Origin: a virus | DNA length: 21,247 nt | Virus record (IMG/VR): IMGVR_UViG_3300012148_000001 | Reading direction: 5' to 3' (one strand) | Shown: positions 2,481 to 21,247 of the stretch, piece by piece | Layout of the letters: every line of letters starts with the position of its first letter | Position numbering within the stretch: position 1 is the stretch's first letter | The notes under the pieces: generated by a model | What the model was told of the DNA's origin: nothing | Databases searched by the model: none | What the model saw: the letters and a program-made list of their open reading frames with translations, nothing else | Translations under genes and position numbers: made by a program

Positions 2481-2612
2481 GCTAGGGGCTCGCAGGGTGC
2501 GAGCGGCGAGCTCGTAACCGCAGAGCTCATTAATAGCCGCCGTTGCGAGCGGCCGTCGAACGTTAGTGAGACAGCGAGTGGAGCAATCTTTGATTGCACA
2601 GGCGGAGTGCCT
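2466..2612 (-). repeat. Mosaic repeat block
   Basis: It is largely the reverse complement of 12259-12385, with one sub-module swapped. Confidence 0.85.
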
Positions 2613-2822: not shown

Positions 2823-2826
2823 ATGA
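2743..2826 (+). CDS. Basic micro-ORF 2, 27 aa; duplicate of micro-ORF 1 with one extra Lys
   Basis: GGAGG lies 6-7 nt upstream. Its stop overlaps ATG 2823 as ATGA. Confidence 0.45.
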   Translation: MKKKRTSQSRKLAFKFASESFKRPEVL

Positions 2827-3458
2827 ACTATTTTGAAATATTCAACAAAGTTATGCTGGAGCTCAACTACAGACCCGTTGTGCTCTTTGAAAACATCTTT
2901 AAAACAGAGCACCTGCGCATTTTGGAGAACATAAACCGCGTAAACGTCGATGTTTGCACGGCCTTCAACTGGTCTTTCCTCGAAAAAAAGACGCTTATAA
3001 AGCTTGAGGCCGACGCATCCGAGGCCGAGCAGGGCATAGCGGGGCAGATAACAAAGGTCTATGACGGGAAAAACAGACTTACCTTCATACCCGACTACGA
3101 AAGCTTTTATCAAGGTTCGCCCCCTCAAAACTCTTACGGTTACTTCAACGACAAGATTCTTTTCGGCAAAGCCGCACACCCGCGCGAGTTAACGGTGTAT
3201 TATAACTCTTCACAGCTTGCACTGGACGTCGGGGGCAGCGCGAAGAATTCCATGGACGAAAAAGAAGACCGCTCAATCATCCCAATGCCTTACGCAGAGC
3301 AGATTCTCGTTTACGGGACGTGCATGAAGACCAAGGCAAACCCCGCATACCCCAAGTTTGGCTTTTGGAACACGCTTTACACCATGTCGCTTGTGAATCT
3401 GCGCGCAAAGTGCAGTCCCACGAGCGAAGACGCCCCAACTATTGTGTTGAATACGTGA
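2823..3458 (+). CDS. Virion structural protein, possibly head-tail adaptor or tail-tube-A-like (211 aa)
   Basis: Good ORF that is translationally coupled to the micro-ORFs. Size and position are typical of podovirus adaptor proteins. The family was not verified. Confidence 0.45.
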   Translation: MNYFEIFNKVMLELNYRPVVLFENIFKTEHLRILENINRVNVDVCTAFNWSFLEKKTLIKLEADASEAEQGIAGQITKVYDGKNRLTFIPDYESFYQGSPPQNSYGYFNDKILFGKAAHPRELTVYYNSSQLALDVGGSAKNSMDEKEDRSIIPMPYAEQILVYGTCMKTKANPAYPKFGFWNTLYTMSLVNLRAKCSPTSEDAPTIVLNT

Positions 3459-3705
3459 GACAGACGCGAGGCTCATAGGGCAGCTGCGTTGAGCAGGTGA
3501 CCGAGAGCCGAACAATTGATGGCGAGAAGTGAGTGGAAAGTGGTGTTTACACCAACTTTCGCCACGAACGCCGAGCCAAAAGACCGCAGGTCTTATAGGC
3601 GACGTTGCGAGCGGCCGTCGAACGCTAGTGAGACAGCGAGCGCACAAAACTCTGAAAGAGTTTTGCCAGGAGCCGAATGCGTGAGACATGCGTAAGCCAG
3701 GGGCT
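3456..3705 (-). repeat. Mosaic repeat block
   Basis: Its modules are shared with 10196-10340, 5774-5848 and 2466-2580. Confidence 0.85.
3515..3597 (-). repeat. 83-nt composite element (AAGACC hairpin + GGCGAAAG bulged hairpin), copy 1
   Basis: Shared sequence ...GGCGAGAAGTGAGTGGAAAGTGGTGTTTACACCAACTTTCGCC...CCGAGCCAAAAGACCGCAGGTCTTAT. Confidence 0.9.
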
Positions 3706-4666: not shown

Positions 4667-5239
4667 ATGTACAAATTCAGAAAGTTGAATCTCGACCCCC
4701 AAAAGCTTGACGCAGAGGCTATCGGGCACTATGTAGAGATTGTAAAATTAATAACAATATATCGTCACAATTTGTTTGACGACTTTGTAAAAACTCCCTT
4801 GAGCGAGCACGTTTTGTCGCTTGTACAAAGGACTTTCCCCTATTTTTGGGTCATACTCACGAAGGCGGACGGACGTTTTTGCGGATTCATCTATTTGTAT
4901 GATTTTGTGGGGGACGAAAAGTGCGCCCACAGCGCCTGCGTCACGGTTTGCCTGAAAAAATCCTTCTGGGGCAGGGCCGCGAGAGACATCGGCCGCGCCT
5001 TTACGGGTTTTTGTTTCGCGAAAATGGGGCTGAAAAAGCTTCGGGCGGAGTGTTTCGCCTCTAACACATTGACGGGCAAGGTTCTTTGCGATTTGAAGTT
5101 CAAAAAAGAGGGCGTTTTGAAGGGGGAAACGCTCGTAAACGGGCGGAGCGAAGACCTTGTGCTGTGGGGAATGCGTAAGCCGGTGCCAGGGTGGCAGCGC
5201 TGTGAAGCGGTGACACACAGCACTACGATGGCGACGTAG
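4667..5239 (+). CDS. GNAT family N-acetyltransferase (RimJ/RimL-like)
   Basis: The motif run WGRAARDIGRAFTGFCFAKMGLKKLRAECFASNTLTGKVLCDLKFKKEGVLKGETLVNG matches the GNAT core. The last ~22 codons read through repeat modules (GCGTAAGCC onward). Confidence 0.75.
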   Translation: MYKFRKLNLDPQKLDAEAIGHYVEIVKLITIYRHNLFDDFVKTPLSEHVLSLVQRTFPYFWVILTKADGRFCGFIYLYDFVGDEKCAHSACVTVCLKKSFWGRAARDIGRAFTGFCFAKMGLKKLRAECFASNTLTGKVLCDLKFKKEGVLKGETLVNGRSEDLVLWGMRKPVPGWQRCEAVTHSTTMAT

Positions 5240-5300
5240 GACTGCAGGGCAGTATGCCCGAAGCCCACAGGAGCCAAACAGCGATAGCTAGGGGTGAACC
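5173..5300 (-). repeat. Mosaic repeat block overlapping the GNAT 3' end
   Basis: It parallels 7296-7440 but lacks the 76-nt element. Confidence 0.85.
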
Positions 5301-5707: not shown

Positions 5708-5878
5708 GGGTGCTCCAAAATTCTGTCACCCCTGCGAGCGCCTATGAGACCTGCGGTCTTTTGGCTCACGCATAGCTCCTGTCAAAACTCTGAAAGAGTT
5801 TTGTGCGCTCCTCCGCTTCGGTCTCCTCAGCTCTGTCGCAACGTCGCCATCGTAGTGCTGCGTGTCACCGGCTGTCTT

Positions 5879-5954
5879 GGAATACGAAGTGCTCGGAAAA
5901 TTCAACATTTCCCTCGCTCAGGAGCTTTGCTTTGCATCAGCTCCCTTCGATTCC
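5879..5954 (+). repeat. 76-nt element, copy 1 (GGAATACGAAG...CTTCGATTCC)
   Basis: Near-identical to the other copies. Confidence 0.95.
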
Positions 5955-6061
5955 GCTCACAGCGCCGTCACATTCGCACCGGTTCACACCTTTACCGCCT
6001 GTCAAATCAAAGATTTGTGCATTTCTTACGGCCGCTCCACGGCCTGCAGTCATAACGGCGG

Positions 6062-6145
6062 TCATAAGACCTACAGTCTTTTGGCTCGGCGTTCGCGGCG
6101 AAAGTTGGTGTAAACACCACTTTCCACTCACTTCTCGCCATTAAT
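6062..6145 (+). repeat. 83-nt composite element, copy 2
   Basis: Same element; the loop of the first hairpin differs (ctaca versus tgc). Confidence 0.9.
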
Positions 6146-6246: not shown

Positions 6247-6449
6247 GCTCACCGCCGCTGTCTTTCGAGCCCCTAGCTATCGCTATTGGCTCCTGTCAAA
6301 ACTCTGAAAGAGTTTTGTGCGCTCCTCCGCTTCGGTCTCCTCAGCTCTGTCGCAACGTCGCCTATCAATACGTACGGTCTTGCGGTCTTGCCAAGCAAGC
6401 CCTGCAGACCTACTTCTGGTTCACACCTTTAGAAAGGAAAATAAACAAA

Positions 6450-7301
6450 ATGACAAACGAAAAATCTTACCCGGGCTTTTTAGCCCAAGCATGGAGCGGT
6501 AAAATCAACACAGGACTTGACGCAAGCTGCGTTATGCTCCAGTGCGTAAACCGCGATTACCAGGCGGACGCCGACAAAGGCGTCGAAGCCATAAACATCA
6601 TCGCCCCGAAAAAGGTCAAGGCGTCAAACTATGCAGGCACAATCAGCAGTTACGAGACGGTCGACACCGAAGGGCAGAAGTTAAAGCTCGACCAGAGCGT
6701 GTATTTCGGCTTTCAAGTGCCCGACATCGAGGAAGCGCAGTCAAACACAAGCATCATAGACACCCTGACCGCGCAGGCGAAAAAATCCATCGAAGAATCA
6801 ATCGACGCCTACCTTTTCGGCCACTACACAGAGGCCGCAGCCGCCAATGTCACAGGCAGCGCGGAAGACCCTGTTTTGCTTGACAGCGCAAGCGTTTACG
6901 CCAAATTTGTCGCGCTTGCCAAAAAGTTAAAACTCTCGGGCGCTATGACCTCGAGCGATAAGGGATGGGTAGTCGTTCACCCTGACGTAGAGGAGCTTTT
7001 GCTGCTTTCCGACGAATTCAGCGCGCCGTCCGCCACGGGCGACAATACCCTCTCTACAGGCTCTATAGGCAGGATTGCAGGCCTTGACGTCTTTGTCAGC
7101 AGCAATGTGGGCAAGGTTTCGGACAAATACGTAGTGCTTGCGGGTACGCAAAGGGCTATCACGTATGCGTCACAGCTTACGAAGATAGAGACAATCCGCT
7201 CGCAGTCGTCGTTTAACTCGATTGTCCGCGGCCTTTATACCTTCGGTGCGCTGACCATGAACCCCGAGGCAATGGCCGTCATGACTTGTAGAACCGCGTA
7301 A
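6450..7301 (+). CDS. Major capsid protein (HK97-fold-like, 283 aa)
   Basis: Start MTNEKSYPGF follows TTAGAAAGGAAAATAAACAAA. The protein is A/S/T/G-rich, and its C-terminal region (ITYASQLTKIETIRSQSSFNSIVRGLYTFGALTMNPEAMAVM) is typical of the Phage_capsid family. The upstream 306 nt of the track ORF is repeat mosaic. Confidence 0.7.
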   Translation: MTNEKSYPGFLAQAWSGKINTGLDASCVMLQCVNRDYQADADKGVEAINIIAPKKVKASNYAGTISSYETVDTEGQKLKLDQSVYFGFQVPDIEEAQSNTSIIDTLTAQAKKSIEESIDAYLFGHYTEAAAANVTGSAEDPVLLDSASVYAKFVALAKKLKLSGAMTSSDKGWVVVHPDVEELLLLSDEFSAPSATGDNTLSTGSIGRIAGLDVFVSSNVGKVSDKYVVLAGTQRAITYASQLTKIETIRSQSSFNSIVRGLYTFGALTMNPEAMAVMTCRTA

Positions 7302-7330
7302 GCCGGTGCTAGAGTGACGGCGCTGTGAGC

Positions 7331-7406
7331 GGAATCGAAGGGAGCTGATGCAAAGCAAAGCTCCTGAGCGAGGGAAATGTTGAATTTTCCGAGCGCTTCG
7401 TATTCC
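7331..7406 (-). repeat. 76-nt element, copy 3 (inverted)
   Basis: Its reverse complement differs from copy 2 by one base. Confidence 0.95.
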
Positions 7407-7716
7407 AAGACAGGCGGTGCCACGCAGCACTACGATAGCGACAGCTCTTCTTGTTTTCGAGGGTGAAACCCGAGAATTACAAGGGAGGGTACCCGGACGG
7501 GTGCGTAGGATGTTGAGACGGCAGTCGAAACACCCACAGGAGCTGACATCCGTTTAGGGCAGGGGTGAGCCTGAACGGCTGCGTCGTCGCAAGCGACACC
7601 CTCCCTTGTACGGCTCCTATGTCGCCTACAAGAAGAGCTGCAGCAGGCGTAAAGGGTGAACTCATTGATGGCCGCCGTTACGACCGCAGGGAGTAGGGAC
7701 CCCACGCGGCCAAGGA

Positions 7717-7890
7717 GTAGGCGACATAGGAGCCGTACTTACGATAAACAAGAAATCTGTGATTTCGTAGTTTAACGGATGCAATCTGCCGAAAGCCTTT
7801 GAGTAAAGCGAATTAGGCTTACGCGCATATTTGCCTTTGTAGCTGCTTTAGCGGCGTAGCGAAGGGGGTAATCTTTGATTTGCCAGGCGG
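7717..7890 (+). repeat. ~174-nt repeat, copy A (candidate structured RNA)
   Basis: About 95% identical to 20246-20418 by eye. Confidence 0.9.
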
Positions 7891-9002: not shown

Positions 9003-9420
9003 GCGATAGCTAGGGGCTCGAAAGACAGCGGCGGTCAGCCGGTGGCTGCAGAGCTCATTAATGGCGAGAAGTGAGTGGAAAGTGGTGTTTACACCAACTT
9101 TCGCCGCGAACGCCGAGCCAAAAGACTGTAGGTCTTATGACCGCCGTTACGACCGCAGGGAGTGAACAAATCTTTGATTTGCCAGGCGGTGAATGCGTGA
9201 GCCAGAAGTAGGTCTTTAGGGCTTGCGTCGTCGCAAGCGACACCCTCCCTTGTAATTCTCGGGCATAGCCCTCGAAAACAAGAAGAGCTGAAGCAAGACC
9301 GTAAGACCGTACGTATTGATAGGCGACGTAAGAGTTTGCTCGCAAACTCCACAGGAGCTGAATGCGTGAGCCAGACGTAGGACTGCAGTGCAGTATGCCC
9401 GAAGCTCACAGGAGCCAAAG
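9003..9420 (-). repeat. Mosaic repeat block
   Basis: Its modules are shared with 6062-6430, 10150-10380 and 15494-15990. Confidence 0.9.
9057..9140 (-). repeat. 83-nt composite element, copy 3
   Basis: Same element, inverted. Confidence 0.9.
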
Positions 9421-9449
9421 AGGCAGTCAGGAGAAGAACTAAACCATAA

Positions 9450-9642: not shown

Positions 9643-9885
9643 TTATGAAGTAGCGCGACCGAGCAGAGAGTGAAAGTCGAGGCGTTGAGCCTTGACTGTA
9701 ACTCGTTTATCGCGAGGGAGAAAGAACCACCCCAGTATTACGTATAAAGTTTTAACGCTGCTGTTTTGCATAAACGACAAACCCACAACCCCGCCGACTA
9801 AAACAGTCAACACGGCCATGAGGGATTGGCGCAGGGATATCAGACTGTCGACTTTCATTTTTGTGTACTCTAATTCTTTATTCAT
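9643..9885 (-). CDS. Small 2-TM membrane protein (80 aa, holin-like topology)
   Basis: Start MNKELEYTK. TM spans are LMAVLTVLVGGVVGLSF and TLYVILGWFFL. The SD is weak. Confidence 0.45.
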   Translation of the reverse strand: MNKELEYTKMKVDSLISLRQSLMAVLTVLVGGVVGLSFMQNSSVKTLYVILGWFFLPRDKRVTVKAQRLDFHSLLGRATS

Positions 9886-9945
9886 CCTGTAATTATACAC
9901 CTTGTGCATGGGCGGGGCAACAGTCATTTAAAGTAAAAAGCGAAA

Positions 9946-10026: not shown

Positions 10027-10200
10027 ATGTTTCCAGACATTTTCAAAAATCACGTTATTTTCAATAAAATGATATATGCCATATATCAAAATATAAAGGG
10101 TAAGGTTGTGTTAACAACTCTTTCCGAAGTACCAAGAGGGCTTACGCATGGCTCCTGTGGGCTTCGGGCATACTGCCCTGCAGTCCTGCGTCGCCTATAA
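10027..10200 (+). CDS. Doubtful small ORF (57 aa) whose 3' half is repeat mosaic
   Basis: GAGAGG lies 4 nt upstream of the ATG. The C-terminal 20 codons are modules seen elsewhere. Confidence 0.25.
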   Translation: MFPDIFKNHVIFNKMIYAIYQNIKGKVVLTTLSEVPRGLTHGSCGLRAYCPAVLRRL

Positions 10201-10278
10201 GACCTGCGGTCTTTTGGCTCGGCATTCGTGGCGAAAGTTGGTGTAAACACCACTTTCCACTCACTTCTCGCCATCAAT
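10196..10278 (+). repeat. 83-nt composite element, copy 4
   Basis: Same element. Confidence 0.9.
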
Positions 10279-10410
10279 TGTTCGGCTCTCGGTCAGCCGC
10301 TGACCGCCGCTGCCCTATGAGCCTCACCCCTGGCTATCGCATGGCTCCTGTGGAGTTTGCAAGCAAACTCTTACGTCGCCATCGTAGTGCTGCGTGCCGC
10401 CGGCTGTCTT

Positions 10411-10486
10411 GGAATACGAAGCACTCGGAAAATTCAACATTTCCCTCGCTCAGGAGCTTTGCTTTGCATCAGCTCCCTTCGATTCC
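10411..10486 (+). repeat. 76-nt element, copy 4
   Basis: Near-identical to the other copies. Confidence 0.95.
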
Positions 10487-10564
10487 GCTCACCGCCGCCG
10501 TCTTTCCCCCCATTCCAACGTGACATTTAGTCACCTTGTAACGGGTCCCTGCACCGGCTTACGC

Positions 10565-10595
10565 GCAAAAAAAATGGAGTTCGAAGACTCCATTT
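10565..10595 (-). terminator. Intrinsic terminator on the minus strand
   Basis: The minus strand reads AAATGGAG-tcttcgaa-CTCCATTT followed by TTTTTTTT. Confidence 0.55.
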
Positions 10596-10710
10596 GCATA
10601 CTAGCCGAAGCATTAACAACATGACTATTGTAGCAAATTCCGCCAAAATTAAAAGGTGTTATTAAGAAACCTTAACAAAACTTCGTACAGACAACAATAC
10701 AGGACATTTT

Positions 10711-11151: not shown

Positions 11152-11517
11152 CTAGGCGCTGTCTCTCAGCTCTTTTTCCACCGCATCATCAATCAGGGCG
11201 TTTATGCTCTTCCCCAGCCTCGCAGCCTTTTTGGCAAGCCTGTAGTGTTTTTCGGAACTTGTACGGTAGGTTATATTGCCCTTAAAATCAGCCAAATTCA
11301 AAGGTTCGGGAATCTCAAAACCGCCCTCTAAACTCGTCAAAATGTATGCCCCGAGCGCTTCTTTGAGGTTGCTAAACGCCTCTTCCGGAGTGTCTCCGCA
11401 CGTCATGTTCTCTTCAAGTTCGTCAATGCTGCCCAAATAGCACTTGTCCGGCTCGCTCCAACTCACACGGTAGCTCCAGGGCAGCTTTAAGTAGTATTCC
11501 GTATTTTTTTCAGCCAT
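11152..11517 (-). CDS. hicB: HicB family antitoxin
   Basis: It has an RNase-H-like N-domain (YLGSIDELEENMTCGDTPEEAFSNLKEALGAYI) plus a C-terminal RHH-like segment (SSEKHYRLAKKAARLGKSINALIDDAV). The SD is GGAGGG. Confidence 0.8.
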   Translation of the reverse strand: MAEKNTEYYLKLPWSYRVSWSEPDKCYLGSIDELEENMTCGDTPEEAFSNLKEALGAYILTSLEGGFEIPEPLNLADFKGNITYRTSSEKHYRLAKKAARLGKSINALIDDAVEKELRDSA

Positions 11518-11518
11518 T

Positions 11519-11761
11519 TTAGTGTCCCTCCGCTTTTAAAGCCTTTTGTACTTTTTGAATAATGTACGGTTTGACCGGGTTTTGGGTTAATACAACCGTT
11601 ATCGAATCTCTGTTAATTTTCCTGTAAGTCAGATGTGAGCTCCCGCCTGCAGGCCCCCGGGCGCTGTAACCGAGCGTTGATAATATTTTCCGCACTTCGC
11701 TTGGTTTTATGTCAGACTTTCCGCTTAATATCTTTTGAGCTGATTTATCCGATTTACCCAT
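11519..11761 (-). CDS. hicA: HicA family toxin (mRNA interferase-like)
   Basis: The segment SEVRKILSTLGYSARGPAGGSSHLTY...ITVVLTQNPVKPYIIQKV fits the HicA fold pattern. The gene lies directly upstream of hicB. Confidence 0.65.
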   Translation of the reverse strand: MGKSDKSAQKILSGKSDIKPSEVRKILSTLGYSARGPAGGSSHLTYRKINRDSITVVLTQNPVKPYIIQKVQKALKAEGH

Positions 11762-12258: not shown

Positions 12259-12392
12259 CCGCCTGTGCAATCAGAGATTGCTTCTCTCGCTGTCTCACTA
12301 ACGTTCGACGGCCGCTCGTAACGGCGGTCATCAATGAGCTCTGCAGCCACCGGCTAACCGCCGCTGTCTTTCGAGCCCCTAGCTATCGCTAT
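12259..12392 (+). repeat. Mosaic repeat block upstream of the portal gene
   Basis: Inverted partner of 2466-2612. It contains an empty site for the 76-nt element. Confidence 0.85.
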
Positions 12393-14130: not shown

Positions 14131-15447
14131 ATGAACTATAAATTACTTAAATCTCAAAAAAAATTCCTGGAAATTCCACATAATTACAGCCTCGATGTTT
14201 GCATTTATCAGGGCGGTTTTGGTTCGGGAAAAACCTTTGCGGGGTCGCTTCTCGGGGTTTTGCTGTGCCTTAAATACCCCAAAATTATCGGCCTTGTGGG
14301 CGCACAGACCTATGCGCTCGTCCGAGACACAACTCTGACAAGCTATTTCGAGCATCTTTCGAACATGGGCTTCAAAGAGGGCAGGGAGTTTTCTTTCAAC
14401 AAATCCGAAAAAATACTCGAGCTAAAAAACGGCTCCAGAGTTCTGTTTCGGCACTTTGACGAGCCCAACAAACTCAAAAGTCTGAATCTGGGCTTCGCTG
14501 AAATCGAAGAAATGTCCGATGTTCCCGAAGAGACCTTCAAAATGCTTCTGGGGCGCATGAGACAGACTGTTCAGGCCGACTGGAAAGACTTTACGTACAG
14601 AATATTCGGGCATACAAACCCCGAAAACCGCAGGGGGTGGATATATAACACTTTTGTAAAAATCAAAAGGCCTAATTACAGGCTTATTATAGCGCCTTCA
14701 ACCGAGAACATCCACTTGCCGAAAGACTTTTGCAAGGATTTGAAGCGGGCATACGACGAAAAGTATTATAAAATGAACGTTTTGGGCGAATTTGAAGAAG
14801 GTGATAACGCGCTTGTAGTAAGGGATTTTACGGAAGAGAACATCCGTAAACTCAATTATAACGAGGGTCTTGATTTGCACATTACCTGTGATTTCAACGT
14901 AGACCCTATGTGCTGGCTTATCGCGCATAAAGACGACAGCAAAGTGTACTTTATAGACGAATTTGCGCTTGAAAACGCAACCACATCAAGTGCTTGCGAC
15001 GAGTTCATCCGCCGATACCCTTGCCACAAGGGACGAATCGTCATTAACGGAGACGCGAGCGGCGACAACAGGAGCTGCCAGAGCGAGTATACGAACTATG
15101 TCATCATGCGAAACAGGCTTGGCGCGCACGGTTACAGGGATGTAAAGTTCGACATCCGCACTTTCAATCCGCCGATACGCAACAGAATCGCGGCTTTTAA
15201 CGCCATGGTCAAAAACTCGGAAGGCGAAAGGCGGCTGTTCGTTGACCCGCAGTGCGAAAAACTTTTGTACAACTTTGAGAACTTGAAATATCTGGAAGGC
15301 AGCTCCAGACTTGACTTGCCGAGCTATTACCAAATCAAAAGCCTGCCCGGCACGAAATTTCTCGGCCACCCTTTTGACGCCGCAAGTTACCTTGTAGAGT
15401 ACTATTTCCCGATTGTCTGCGCGGGCAGCGGGTTTGAGGGGGTTTAG
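14131..15447 (+). CDS. terL: Terminase large subunit
   Basis: It carries Walker A (GGFGSGKTF), Walker B-like (LGFAEIEE) and nuclease acidic motifs (ITCDFNVDP, INGDASGDN, HPFDAASY). Confidence 0.9.
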   Translation: MNYKLLKSQKKFLEIPHNYSLDVCIYQGGFGSGKTFAGSLLGVLLCLKYPKIIGLVGAQTYALVRDTTLTSYFEHLSNMGFKEGREFSFNKSEKILELKNGSRVLFRHFDEPNKLKSLNLGFAEIEEMSDVPEETFKMLLGRMRQTVQADWKDFTYRIFGHTNPENRRGWIYNTFVKIKRPNYRLIIAPSTENIHLPKDFCKDLKRAYDEKYYKMNVLGEFEEGDNALVVRDFTEENIRKLNYNEGLDLHITCDFNVDPMCWLIAHKDDSKVYFIDEFALENATTSSACDEFIRRYPCHKGRIVINGDASGDNRSCQSEYTNYVIMRNRLGAHGYRDVKFDIRTFNPPIRNRIAAFNAMVKNSEGERRLFVDPQCEKLLYNFENLKYLEGSSRLDLPSYYQIKSLPGTKFLGHPFDAASYLVEYYFPIVCAGSGFEGV

Positions 15448-15449
15448 GC

Positions 15450-15990
15450 ATCCTGTTTGTCAAATCAAAGATTACCCCATTTGCAGCGAGCAACAGCTCG
15501 TCTTGTTTTCGAGGGCTATGCCCGAGAATTACAAGGGAGGGTGCCGTTTTCGGCCAAATTAAAATGGCGTAGCCATTATTCCCCGCGGGGGGCTTGTCGT
15601 ATGGCTTTGCGTCTGGCTTACGCTTTCGGCTCCTGTGGGTGTCTCAACTACCGTCTCAACATCCTACGTCGCCATCGTAGTGCTGCGTGCCGCCGACTGT
15701 CTTGGAATACGAAGCGCTCGGAAAATTCAACATTTCCCTTGCTCAGGAGCTTTGCTTTGCATCAACTCCCTTCGATTCCGCTCGCCGCCGCCGTCTTCCC
15801 CCCCCATTCCAACGTGACATTTAGTCACCTTGTAACGGGTCCCTGCACCGGCTTACGCATCCCGCCTGTCAAATCAAAGATTTGTTCACTCCCTACGGCC
15901 GCTCCACGGCCTGCGGTCGTAACGGCGGCTATCAATACGTACGGTCTTACGTGCTTGCTCATCGCAAGCCCTAAAGACCTACTTCTGGCC
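15450..15990 (+). repeat. Mosaic repeat block between terL and the 16012 gene
   Basis: Its modules are shared with 10343-10565, 5995-6060 and 9169-9330. Confidence 0.9.
15704..15779 (+). repeat. 76-nt element, copy 5
   Basis: Near-identical to the other copies (3 substitutions). Confidence 0.95.
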
Positions 15991-20245: not shown

Positions 20246-20418
20246 GTAGGCGACACAGGAGCCGTACTTACGATAAACAAGAAATCTGTGATTTCGTAGT
20301 TTAACGGATGCAATCTGCCGAAAGCCTTTGAGCAAAGTAAATCAGGCTTACGCGCATATTTGCCTTTGCAGCTGCTTTAGCAGCGTAGCGAAGGGGGTAA
20401 TCTTTGATTGCACAGGCG
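20246..20418 (+). repeat. ~174-nt repeat, copy B
   Basis: About 95% identical to 7717-7890. Confidence 0.9.
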
Positions 20419-21119: not shown

Positions 21120-21247
21120 ATGAAAGATTTTTTCTACAACCTGCAAGGCGGCATAAACACAAGCCGCACAAAGATTGCTCTCGGTTCAGACGTTAAAAAG
21201 CTGTACTGGGACGATGCTTCCAATGTCGAAATATTGAAAAACCAAGG
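21120..21247 (+). CDS. 5' end of the junction-spanning tail-like structural gene (continues as 2..1516; 506 aa in total)
   Basis: ATG at 21120 is preceded by AAGGAAACA. The frame maps onto base 2 of the window and onto the 110..1516 track ORF. Confidence 0.75.
   Translation, partial: MKDFFYNLQGGINTSRTKIALGSDVKKLYWDDASNVEILKNQ
21125..21247. repeat. Terminal overlap copy 2 (= 1-123)
   Basis: Identical to the window start. The reading frame of the junction gene is continuous across it. Confidence 0.95.

Follow-up and report, generated by a model that had tools for sequence, protein, structure and literature searches.

A structured repeat of about 110 nucleotides shared by Gastranaerophilales chromosomes and their phages, with modules exchanged at its junction motifs

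The window analysed here, by which we mean the whole of a 21,247-nt stretch of viral DNA (IMG/VR record IMGVR_UViG_3300012148_000001, ENA contig ERZ27241817 k141_94609), carries copies of a structured unit of ~110 nt that is shown here to be a multicopy intergenic element of the chromosomes of the Gastranaerophilales (Melainabacteria), of their phages and of their prophages. The existence of this unit, its membership of a host chromosomal family common to phages, the identification of its junction motifs with the constant flanks of short cassettes and of its hairpin A with their variable cores, and the exchange of modules at these junctions are all well supported. Whether the unit acts as a DNA element or as an RNA is less certain. 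With moderate confidence, we favour an interspersed mosaic repeat resembling the REP (repetitive extragenic palindromic)/BIME (bacterial interspersed mosaic element) or ERIC (enterobacterial repetitive intergenic consensus) sequences, which would spread and recombine as DNA and be co-transcribed at the ends of genes. Coordinates refer to the window unless they are preceded by the designation of another contig (L).

Results

The cassettes are parts of a larger unit

A sequence-only reading of the window had described cassettes in which constant flanks enclose different cores, and had proposed either a preferred insertion site for hairpin elements or a scaffold carrying variable segments. The cassettes lie where they had been placed: the exact pattern GGCTCCTRTG-N(0-30)-CGTCGCC, which takes the form GGCTCCTGTG-X-CGTCGCC, matches four times in the window, at 5230-5275 (-), 10150-10195 (+), 10343-10380 (+) and 15628-15673 (+), while 0.00 matches are expected from 100 dinucleotide-preserving shuffles. 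Relaxed scans add two identical 74-nt copies with a K4 core at 5775-5848 and 6289-6362, with the left flank A/GGCTCCTGTC, a K2 core with one mismatch at 9322-9358 (-), a K1 variant at 9374-9417 (-) in which ACGTCTGG takes the place of CGTCGCC, and a K3 variant at 7504-7546 (-) whose right flank, ACGCACCC, is degenerate. All the cores fold as hairpins, beyond the single one that had been termed palindromic.

The first of the two proposals is not supported, the flanks being the junction strands of a ~110-nt unit and the core its hairpin A rather than an independent element. Read 5' to 3', the unit measures ~105-125 nt and comprises GCTCCTGTG, hairpin A, TACGTCGCC-ATCGTA, a stem PB around hairpin B, and CCGGCTTACGC; its 3' end reads C(C)GGCT(T/C)ACGC and is followed by a T-rich stretch, and the loop of hairpin B in the host copies is mostly close to UCAAC. 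The left flank of the cassette is the 5' junction strand of the unit, the right flank is the start of its TACG...CGTA arm, and the motif GGCTTACGCAT found ahead of the window cassettes belongs to another, often partial, unit that precedes them and of which it is the 3' end.

The second proposal, in which the variable cores of a guide or decoy scaffold would pair with host or competitor-phage targets, has the constant-scaffold, variable-insert layout as its only argument. The cores are self-complementary hairpins that vary mainly by compensatory substitution, the matching of the cores to 1.29 Mb of sampled host and phage DNA returned only other copies of the element, and the gene calls and domain scans of the window contain no effector of the Cas type or of the TnpB/IscB type. 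This explanation is already largely refuted, and we hold it to be very improbable.

The three strings described as apparently empty forms of the cassette are present, at 7612-7626 (+), 7720-7734 (-) and 20249-20263 (-), and for none of them was a filled/empty pair found at a single locus. All three lie within a fixed 22-nt motif, GTACGGCTCCTRTGTCGCCTAC, which has been seen only in the phage lineage of the window and never in host copies. A single 22-bp inverted repeat has the strings at 7612 (+) and 7720 (-) as its arms: at 7606-7741, an inverted pair of the motif GTACGGCTCCTATGTCGCCTAC surrounds an 85-nt segment, and a third copy lies at 20246-20270 (-). A look-alike at 15061-15075, inside the coding sequence of the large terminase subunit (TerL), is probably due to chance.

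A repeat family of Gastranaerophilales chromosomes

What the sequence-only reading missed is that the family is a host chromosomal repeat. A strict 24-base pattern (GCTCCTGTG, N15-45, TACGTCGCCATCGTA), for which we calculate a chance expectation of ~0.1, identifies 17 loci in a collection of species-representative genomes, nearly all of them in metagenome-assembled genomes (MAGs) of Melainabacteria/Vampirovibrio/Gastranaerophilales, together with 22 metagenome loci and 0 contigs of IMG/VR. Several of the host contigs are 124-210 kb long, and three of them come from MAG JAVBQM01, which also holds the related phage L107. The genes that flank the host units are ordinary chromosomal or housekeeping genes (MacB/FtsX, an ABC transporter, OmpH, a response regulator). 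The units are found there singly or in direct tandem arrays, as with the three 122-nt units of L108 and the 2.2 units of 112 nt of L123, and one inverted pair only was found, in L120. Searched in IMG/VR, the 18-nt cassette pattern gave 48 singletons, a number estimated to be consistent with chance, one of which (L048) later proved to be a genuine relative, and a 20-mer of module C gave 0 matches.

Two further host-side observations concern the range of the element. On a 75-kb host contig (L142:11809-13251), two units on the (-) strand flank the Terminase_3 large-subunit gene of a different (pro)phage, which indicates that the element is not confined to the phage family of the window. L124 (CAVCIU010000063.1), a contig of 7.3 kb that had been binned with the Methanobacteriaceae, carries one canonical unit and is probably a mis-binned Melainabacteria or phage contig.

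Repeat-rich metagenome contigs can misassemble, and the contigs of the relatives do break inside repeats, so that an assembly artefact or a chance similarity has to be considered. Such an origin is scarcely credible for units that ENA, JGI, Logan and NCBI assemblies and many MAGs all yielded independently, for which 0 chance matches are expected and whose helices covary strongly.

The unit has a conserved and covarying fold

A covariance model built from 17 units retrieves 56 units at E<1e-9 in a search space of 347 kb. When 52 distinct unit sequences are compared under a five-helix model, with 500 shuffles and slid pairing partners as controls, 92.6% of the cells are paired, against 76.5% in the shuffled alignments and 27-49% when the partners are slid; double-change cells number 178 against 53 in the shuffles, and the covariation score is 0.44, against 0.14 in the shuffles (0 of 500 reach the observed value) and 0.03-0.08 with slid partners. 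Covariation is found in hairpin A, in PB and in hairpin B, each of which has pairs showing three or four Watson-Crick types, and hairpin A has, as its third pair, a conserved non-canonical one (G.T in 30, T.T in 11 and A-T in 9 of the 52 copies). The TACG/CGTA arm (P3) and the closing GCU/GGC helix (P1) are invariant within type 1 and so give no covariation signal. In the type-2 units (CCGCCTGT...ACGGCGG), a perfect CCGCC/GGCGG closing helix occupies the same place, and the replacement of GCU/GGC by CCGCC/GGCGG would thus lend compensatory support to the closing helix. Folding of single sequences yields, in several cases, a four-helix junction that the 5' and 3' ends of the unit close.

The fold corresponds to none of the known classes with which it was compared. 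Rfam yields no match at gathering score, and the window has none even with the threshold relaxed to E 5; a limit of E 10 gives two weak chance matches for L113 (E 0.43 and 5.8) and none for L108. Together with these Rfam scans, scans for tRNA and tmRNA genes, covering the window and host units, give nothing beyond weak matches at chance level. A tRNA-like cloverleaf, a hammerhead, a twister and a group II domain V were dropped on inspection by eye, their defining motifs and Rfam matches being absent, and a long-range pairing of TACGTCGCC with GGCTTACGCA, suggested by folds of the reverse strand, was likewise set aside by eye, as variants of the 3' motif break it without compensation. We also abandoned the assignment of a strand from G.U and A.C counts: the GCTCCTGTG strand is favoured by the wobble asymmetry of hairpin A and not by that of hairpin B, and the minimum-free-energy preference for the reverse strand, which folds more stably in 46 of the 52 units, is confounded by the purine skew that follows from the 62% pyrimidine content of the sense strand.

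Units lie at gene ends, and some are under selection

In ~28 of 33 host cases, several of which are one locus from different samples, a convergent gene has its stop codon next to the 3' end of the unit or overlapping it; on its 5' side, the unit faces a stop codon of the same strand, at a distance of 4-34 nt, or the next gene's start. Read in reverse complement, the 3' motif becomes TAAATGCGTAAGCC and gives stop codons in two frames, which may be the cause of this orientation bias. Certain open reading frames (ORFs) read into units, that of an acetyltransferase in the window and that of a serine recombinase in a host. The latter ORF (PF00239, L118:4770-5453 (-)) runs for ~40 codons antisense through a unit and stops where a tyrosine integrase gene starts (L118:3656-4783 (-)). 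At this recombinase/integrase locus, six strains have 105-nt units that are 97-100% identical, between flanking stretches of 600 nt that are 75-96% identical; the unit is thus better conserved than its surroundings, and at least some copies are under purifying selection. Across phages and hosts, units lie in both orientations relative to the neighbouring genes. No terminator-like site coincides with a unit and no promoter or terminator is tied to the units, which led us to discard an identity as intrinsic terminators.

These data bear on the possibility that the unit is a functional structured non-coding RNA, be it a cis-acting element of 3' untranslated regions (UTRs), a small RNA processed from tandem arrays or a self-cleaving ribozyme, the phage copies being used by the phage or titrating a host factor. 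Tandem arrays of units resemble known small-RNA arrays such as NsiR1. The three covarying helices with their invariant junction sequences, the conserved non-canonical pair, the four-helix junction and, as we read it, the compensation of the closing helix between type 1 and type 2 are what such an RNA would display, and the conservation at the recombinase/integrase locus, the strong strand skew and the orientation bias relative to the abutting gene point the same way. It nevertheless has no counterpart in Rfam beyond the weak chance matches and no promoter or terminator tied to it, and it lies in either orientation relative to its neighbours; the wobble asymmetry and the better folding of the reverse strand point to no single active strand, and the units are dispensable in close relatives. 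Moreover, REPINs too have hairpins with compensatory changes and cluster outside genes (PMC3116915), so that covariation is no proof of RNA. On balance we regard a functional RNA as a serious, though less likely, alternative.

Copies are gained, lost and remodelled as DNA

Comparison of close relatives shows that copies are gained and lost as DNA, by insertions flanked by direct repeats and by changes in tandem copy number. In one pair of hosts, L108 has a single CCGGCTTTTGCTGATT where L119 has a 122-nt unit between two copies of CCGGCTTTCGCTGATT, which form a 16-nt direct repeat, CCGGCTTTYGCTGATT; an array at the adjacent ssb locus comprises 1.5 copies in L119, compared with ~3 in L108. Ahead of many host units stands a duplicate, 13-63 nt long, of the 3' segment of the unit itself. 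In the phages, a complete unit on the (-) strand lies in the first codons of the TerL gene at L052:4540-4660, where a flanking 60-bp duplication regenerates the start of the gene, and a second, diverged phage (L107:4251-4430) shows a like but older event at a distance of 5 nt from that site. Both insertions adjoin the near-palindrome AATTCCTGGAAATT, and the TerL gene of the window, which starts at 14131, contains no unit. The flanking direct repeats vary in length (16, 32, 60 and 63 nt). Larger differences separate the window from L052: a ~530-nt repeat block downstream of TerL is present in the window and absent from L052, and the region upstream of the portal gene is wholly different in the two.

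The same comparisons show that copies exchange modules, with the junction motifs GGCTCCTG, CGTCGCC and GGCTTACGC as the exact points of exchange. Between the window and L131, which are 97-99% identical, the core at 10150-10195 is swapped exactly between GGCTCCTG and CGTCGCC, a core of 28 nt in the window facing a K4-type core of 58 nt in L131, in surroundings that stay identical for more than 50 nt to the left and for ~190 nt to the right. In the next unit of L131, the 3' part is replaced, again exactly, between ACGTCGCC and GGCTTACGC by a 66-nt module of the TATCAATACG type. Fixed flanks and swappable cores, as described in the sequence-only reading, are thus borne out, and the replacement of a core in identical surroundings gives the cores defined boundaries, which arbitrary fragments of a longer ancestral repeat would lack. 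Since both donor core types are also found at other places in the genome, these swaps would be explained most simply by gene conversion or by template switching from one paralogous unit to another, the conserved junctions of 7-9 nt setting the visible boundaries.

A dedicated site-specific system comparable to integron attC sites or to Xer/dif, in which circular ~110-nt units would integrate at CCGGCTTNCGC-like sites and swap cassettes, would also produce exchanges located exactly at conserved motifs. It would account for the empty site of L108, which already holds CCGGCTTTTGC, a sequence that resembles the 3' end of the unit and is duplicated in the filled site, as well as for the many units preceded by their own 3' segment and for the well-conserved copy located between the serine recombinase and tyrosine integrase genes. 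However, a recombinase is adjacent at only one locus group of roughly 30, the gene calls of the phage include no recombinase, the flanks are not complementary as are the R''/R' boxes of attC, and direct repeats of 16-63 nt do not suit a fixed crossover core. We therefore judge a system of this kind to be quite unlikely.

Copies in the window and size of the phage genome

Bases 1-123 of the window are identical to bases 21125-21247, which makes it a circular assembly of 21,124 bp. Its gene set comprises a tail/virion protein, the major capsid protein, an SU10-type portal, TerL and the small terminase, an HTH_36 replication initiator, a GerE regulator and an amidase. The same gene order is found at a compact size of 11.6-12.9 kb in its relatives, one of which (L055) is a complete circle of 12.9 kb, the others (L105, L106 and L107) measuring 11.6-12.3 kb. 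By a tally from the gene calls, non-coding DNA makes up ~8.1 kb (38%) of the window and is a mosaic of repeated modules that lie in both orientations; the DNA that the window has in excess of its compact relatives consists largely of repeat modules. A megablast search of the INPHARED phages with the window found no match. The 1.7-fold spread in length within this family of very small tailed phages is a packaging puzzle in its own right.

The copy that best matches the family model (R1, 99.4 bits, E 1e-25) is a complete compact unit of 113 nt with a K1 core, at 5168-5280 (-); the acetyltransferase ORF (4667-5239) runs into this unit, so that the two overlap at the 3' end of the ORF. A more elaborate block begins at 10139-10149 (+) with GGCTTACGCAT, a copy of the 3' terminal motif placed before the first cassette in the way seen in tandem arrays and with partial leading copies. 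The cassette itself, at 10150-10195 (+), consists of GGCTCCTGTG, a K1 hairpin A with a lower stem GGGCU/AGUCC and an upper stem GGGCA/UGCCC, and GCGTCGCC (R1 match 10145-10265, E 4.5e-4), and is followed by module B (TATAAGACC) in place of the canonical ATCGTA arm. The repeated hairpin modules B and I occupy 10196-10331 (+), with copies at 3451-3604 (-), 6054-6145 (+) and 9057-9155 (-). One complete unit then extends over 10343-10564 (+; R1, 46 bits): GGCTCCTGTG, a K2 hairpin A (GGAGUUUGC/GCAAACUCU), ACGTCGCC, ATCGTA, the PB 5' arm GTGC (10387-10390), a hairpin-B region enlarged to ~160 nt, the PB 3' arm GCAC (10551-10554) and CGGCTTACGC (10555-10564). The GGCTTACGCAT motif also closes the block at 10555-10564, and in the host arrays the 3' motif is succeeded by a T-rich linker and the next unit.

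A K3-core unit with an expanded hairpin-B region lies at 15623-15858 (+; 56 bits), ends with GGCTTACGC at 15850-15858 and belongs to the ~530-nt block downstream of TerL. The K4 unit at 5763-5994 (+; R1 5801-5994, 30 bits) includes the leader GGCTCACGCAT, then AGCTCCTGT, the hairpin CAAAACUCU/AGAGUUUUG, a second segment, ACGTCGCC and ATCGTAGTGC, and has a homologous single copy in a compact relative (L055:2497-2556); a second, identical K4 cassette stands directly upstream of the major capsid gene at 6277-6362 (+). Two adjacent cassettes, a K1 variant followed by a K2 variant, occupy 9317-9422 (-; R1 9276-9364), and a K3-variant cassette with a degenerate right flank is found at 7498-7549 (-; R1 7433-7549). 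The type-2 unit at 15862-15928 (+), with CCGCCTGT, a hairpin CAAAUC/GAUUUG, the TACG...CGTA arm and ACGGCGG, has other copies at 2537-2605 (-), 5995-6061 (+) and 12259-12327 (+); its CCGCC pairs with GGCGG, and it is seen only in the phage lineage. Finally, a 74-nt hairpin-B-like module with the loop CTCAAC, at 9652-9725 (-), is present in the window and absent from L131, and is thus an indel between the two. This module lies within or at the 3' end of an ORF at 9643-9927 (-) and has no flanking duplication.

Other features of the window were seen in passing. A perfect 79-nt tandem duplication (2669-2747 and 2749-2827) ends in the ATG of the gene at 2823-3458, so that it takes in the start of that gene, and holds an AAGACC...GGTCTT hairpin resembling module B. 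The major capsid gene (~6450-7301) is bracketed by a 145-nt inverted repeat (5843-5987 and 7298-7442) whose arms are 94% complementary; if both were transcribed, the 5' and 3' UTRs could pair as a long duplex. The small terminase (terS) and portal genes are separated by a HicB/UPF0150-like gene and its 80-residue partner, both on the opposite strand (11152-11761 (-)); a strong promoter-like site, TTGACA-17-TATCAT, is found at 11796-11768. Directly upstream of terS, an A-run and a hairpin followed by CATACTAGCCGAAGCATTAACAAC are kept in all the relatives (10565-10610 in the window, L055:2670-2710, L105:8190-8250); this feature reads as an intrinsic terminator of the minus strand, and the compact relatives have no minus-strand gene upstream of it.

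Discussion

The model that we favour, that of a REP/BIME-like or ERIC-like mosaic repeat, considers the unit as a non-autonomous, hairpin-forming DNA repeat, the spread and reshuffling of which would proceed by recombination or template switching, aided by its short conserved motifs. Located mostly at the 3' ends of genes, the units would be co-transcribed with them and may shape the ends of the mRNAs. The phage would have acquired units from its host, and their subsequent proliferation in the intergenic regions would have produced the ~8 kb (~38%) of mosaic non-coding DNA, the multiplication of units thereby helping to swell the phage genome from about 12 to 21 kb.

The unit has several features of REP, REPIN and BIME sequences: it is multicopy, extragenic and hairpin-forming, its stems change by compensation, it clusters at the 3' ends of genes and between convergent genes, and it forms arrays and mosaics of several types of module. 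It differs from them in that it is ~110 nt long and has three or four helices and invariant unpaired motifs, where a REP is a palindrome of 20-40 nt, in its insertions with direct repeats of 16-63 nt, and in its massive presence in a phage genome. REPINs are mobilised by RAYTs (REP-associated tyrosine transposases), whose genes are flanked by the cognate REPs. No RAYT or other transposase was found among the ten flanking ORFs scanned, a result that covers the sampled flanks and no genome-wide search. With ERIC/IRU, BOX, RUP and Correia-type elements, the unit has in common its nature of structured intergenic repeat in the range of 100-150 nt, found in either orientation and presumably co-transcribed. 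BOX elements are modular, and ERIC copies can carry internal insertions at fixed sites, which is reminiscent of the fixed junctions and swappable modules described here. Unlike these families, it is restricted, as far as sampled, to the Melainabacteria and their phages, and unlike repeats of the MITE (miniature inverted-repeat transposable element) type, it has no terminal inverted repeats, its 5' GCTCCTGT and its 3' GCACCGGC/GGCTTACGC not being inverted copies of each other, and no target duplication of fixed length (16, 32, 60 and 63 nt).

Comparison with recombination sites is also instructive. Integron attC sites range from 57 to 141 nt, which overlaps the 105-125 nt of the unit, and both have conserved ends, a variable structured centre, a position just after stop codons and a role as recombination points for the exchange of cassettes. 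The unit differs from attC by its non-complementary flanks, by the absence of an integrase from the gene calls of the window and of an attI nearby, and by tandem arrays with no ORF between the units. Promoter-early stem-loops (PeSLs) of T4-type phages are phage-specific elements of ~50 nt that carry an early promoter, are co-oriented with the genes and mediate modular shuffling. Like them, the units are short stem-loop repeats of phage intergenic regions, act as recombination points and account for modular variation between close relatives; unlike them, they are host chromosomal repeats, found in both orientations and with no consistent promoter.

Several facts weigh against a passive mosaic repeat. 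Besides lacking terminal inverted repeats and having direct repeats of variable length, the insertions fit no known transposition chemistry, and no recombinase gene that could serve as a mobilising enzyme is found among the gene calls and domain scans of the window. The architecture is RNA-like, with several helices, invariant unpaired motifs and a conserved pair that is not Watson-Crick; the host units form direct tandem arrays and not the inverted doublets typical of REPs and REPINs, in which two copies fold into one long hairpin; and an identity of 97-100% within diverged flanks is a sign of purifying selection beyond what a passive repeat would need. In a more novel reading, the ~110-nt four-helix junction, with its invariant junction nucleotides and its conserved non-canonical pair, would be a new class of small structured nucleic acid, both functional, for instance as a self-processing or protein-recruiting RNA produced from tandem arrays, and mobile. 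Its helices would be exchangeable cassettes, and its spread among the Melainabacteria and their phages would leave target duplications of variable length, whether RNA-mediated, in the manner of SINEs (short interspersed nuclear elements), or achieved by template switching. We consider such a dual nature unlikely, and prefer the mosaic DNA repeat.

Whatever its biochemical nature, the unit represents a new, previously undescribed family of structured repeats in the uncultured gut lineage Gastranaerophilales: it has no match in Rfam, and our search of the literature on Gastranaerophilales phages or repeats and on phage MITEs found nothing relevant. The element shared by both partners ties this family of small phages to a Gastranaerophilales host. 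Phage genomes are normally streamlined. Here, a tailed phage tolerates, and perhaps exploits, a near-doubling of its genome by repeats of host type, which raises the question of how 21 kb are packaged where the relatives package 12 kb. The exact exchange of modules at junctions of 7-9 nt offers a tractable natural system for the study of modular recombination driven by short motifs. If the unit were in fact an active RNA, it would define a new class of RNA for which an alignment is already at hand.

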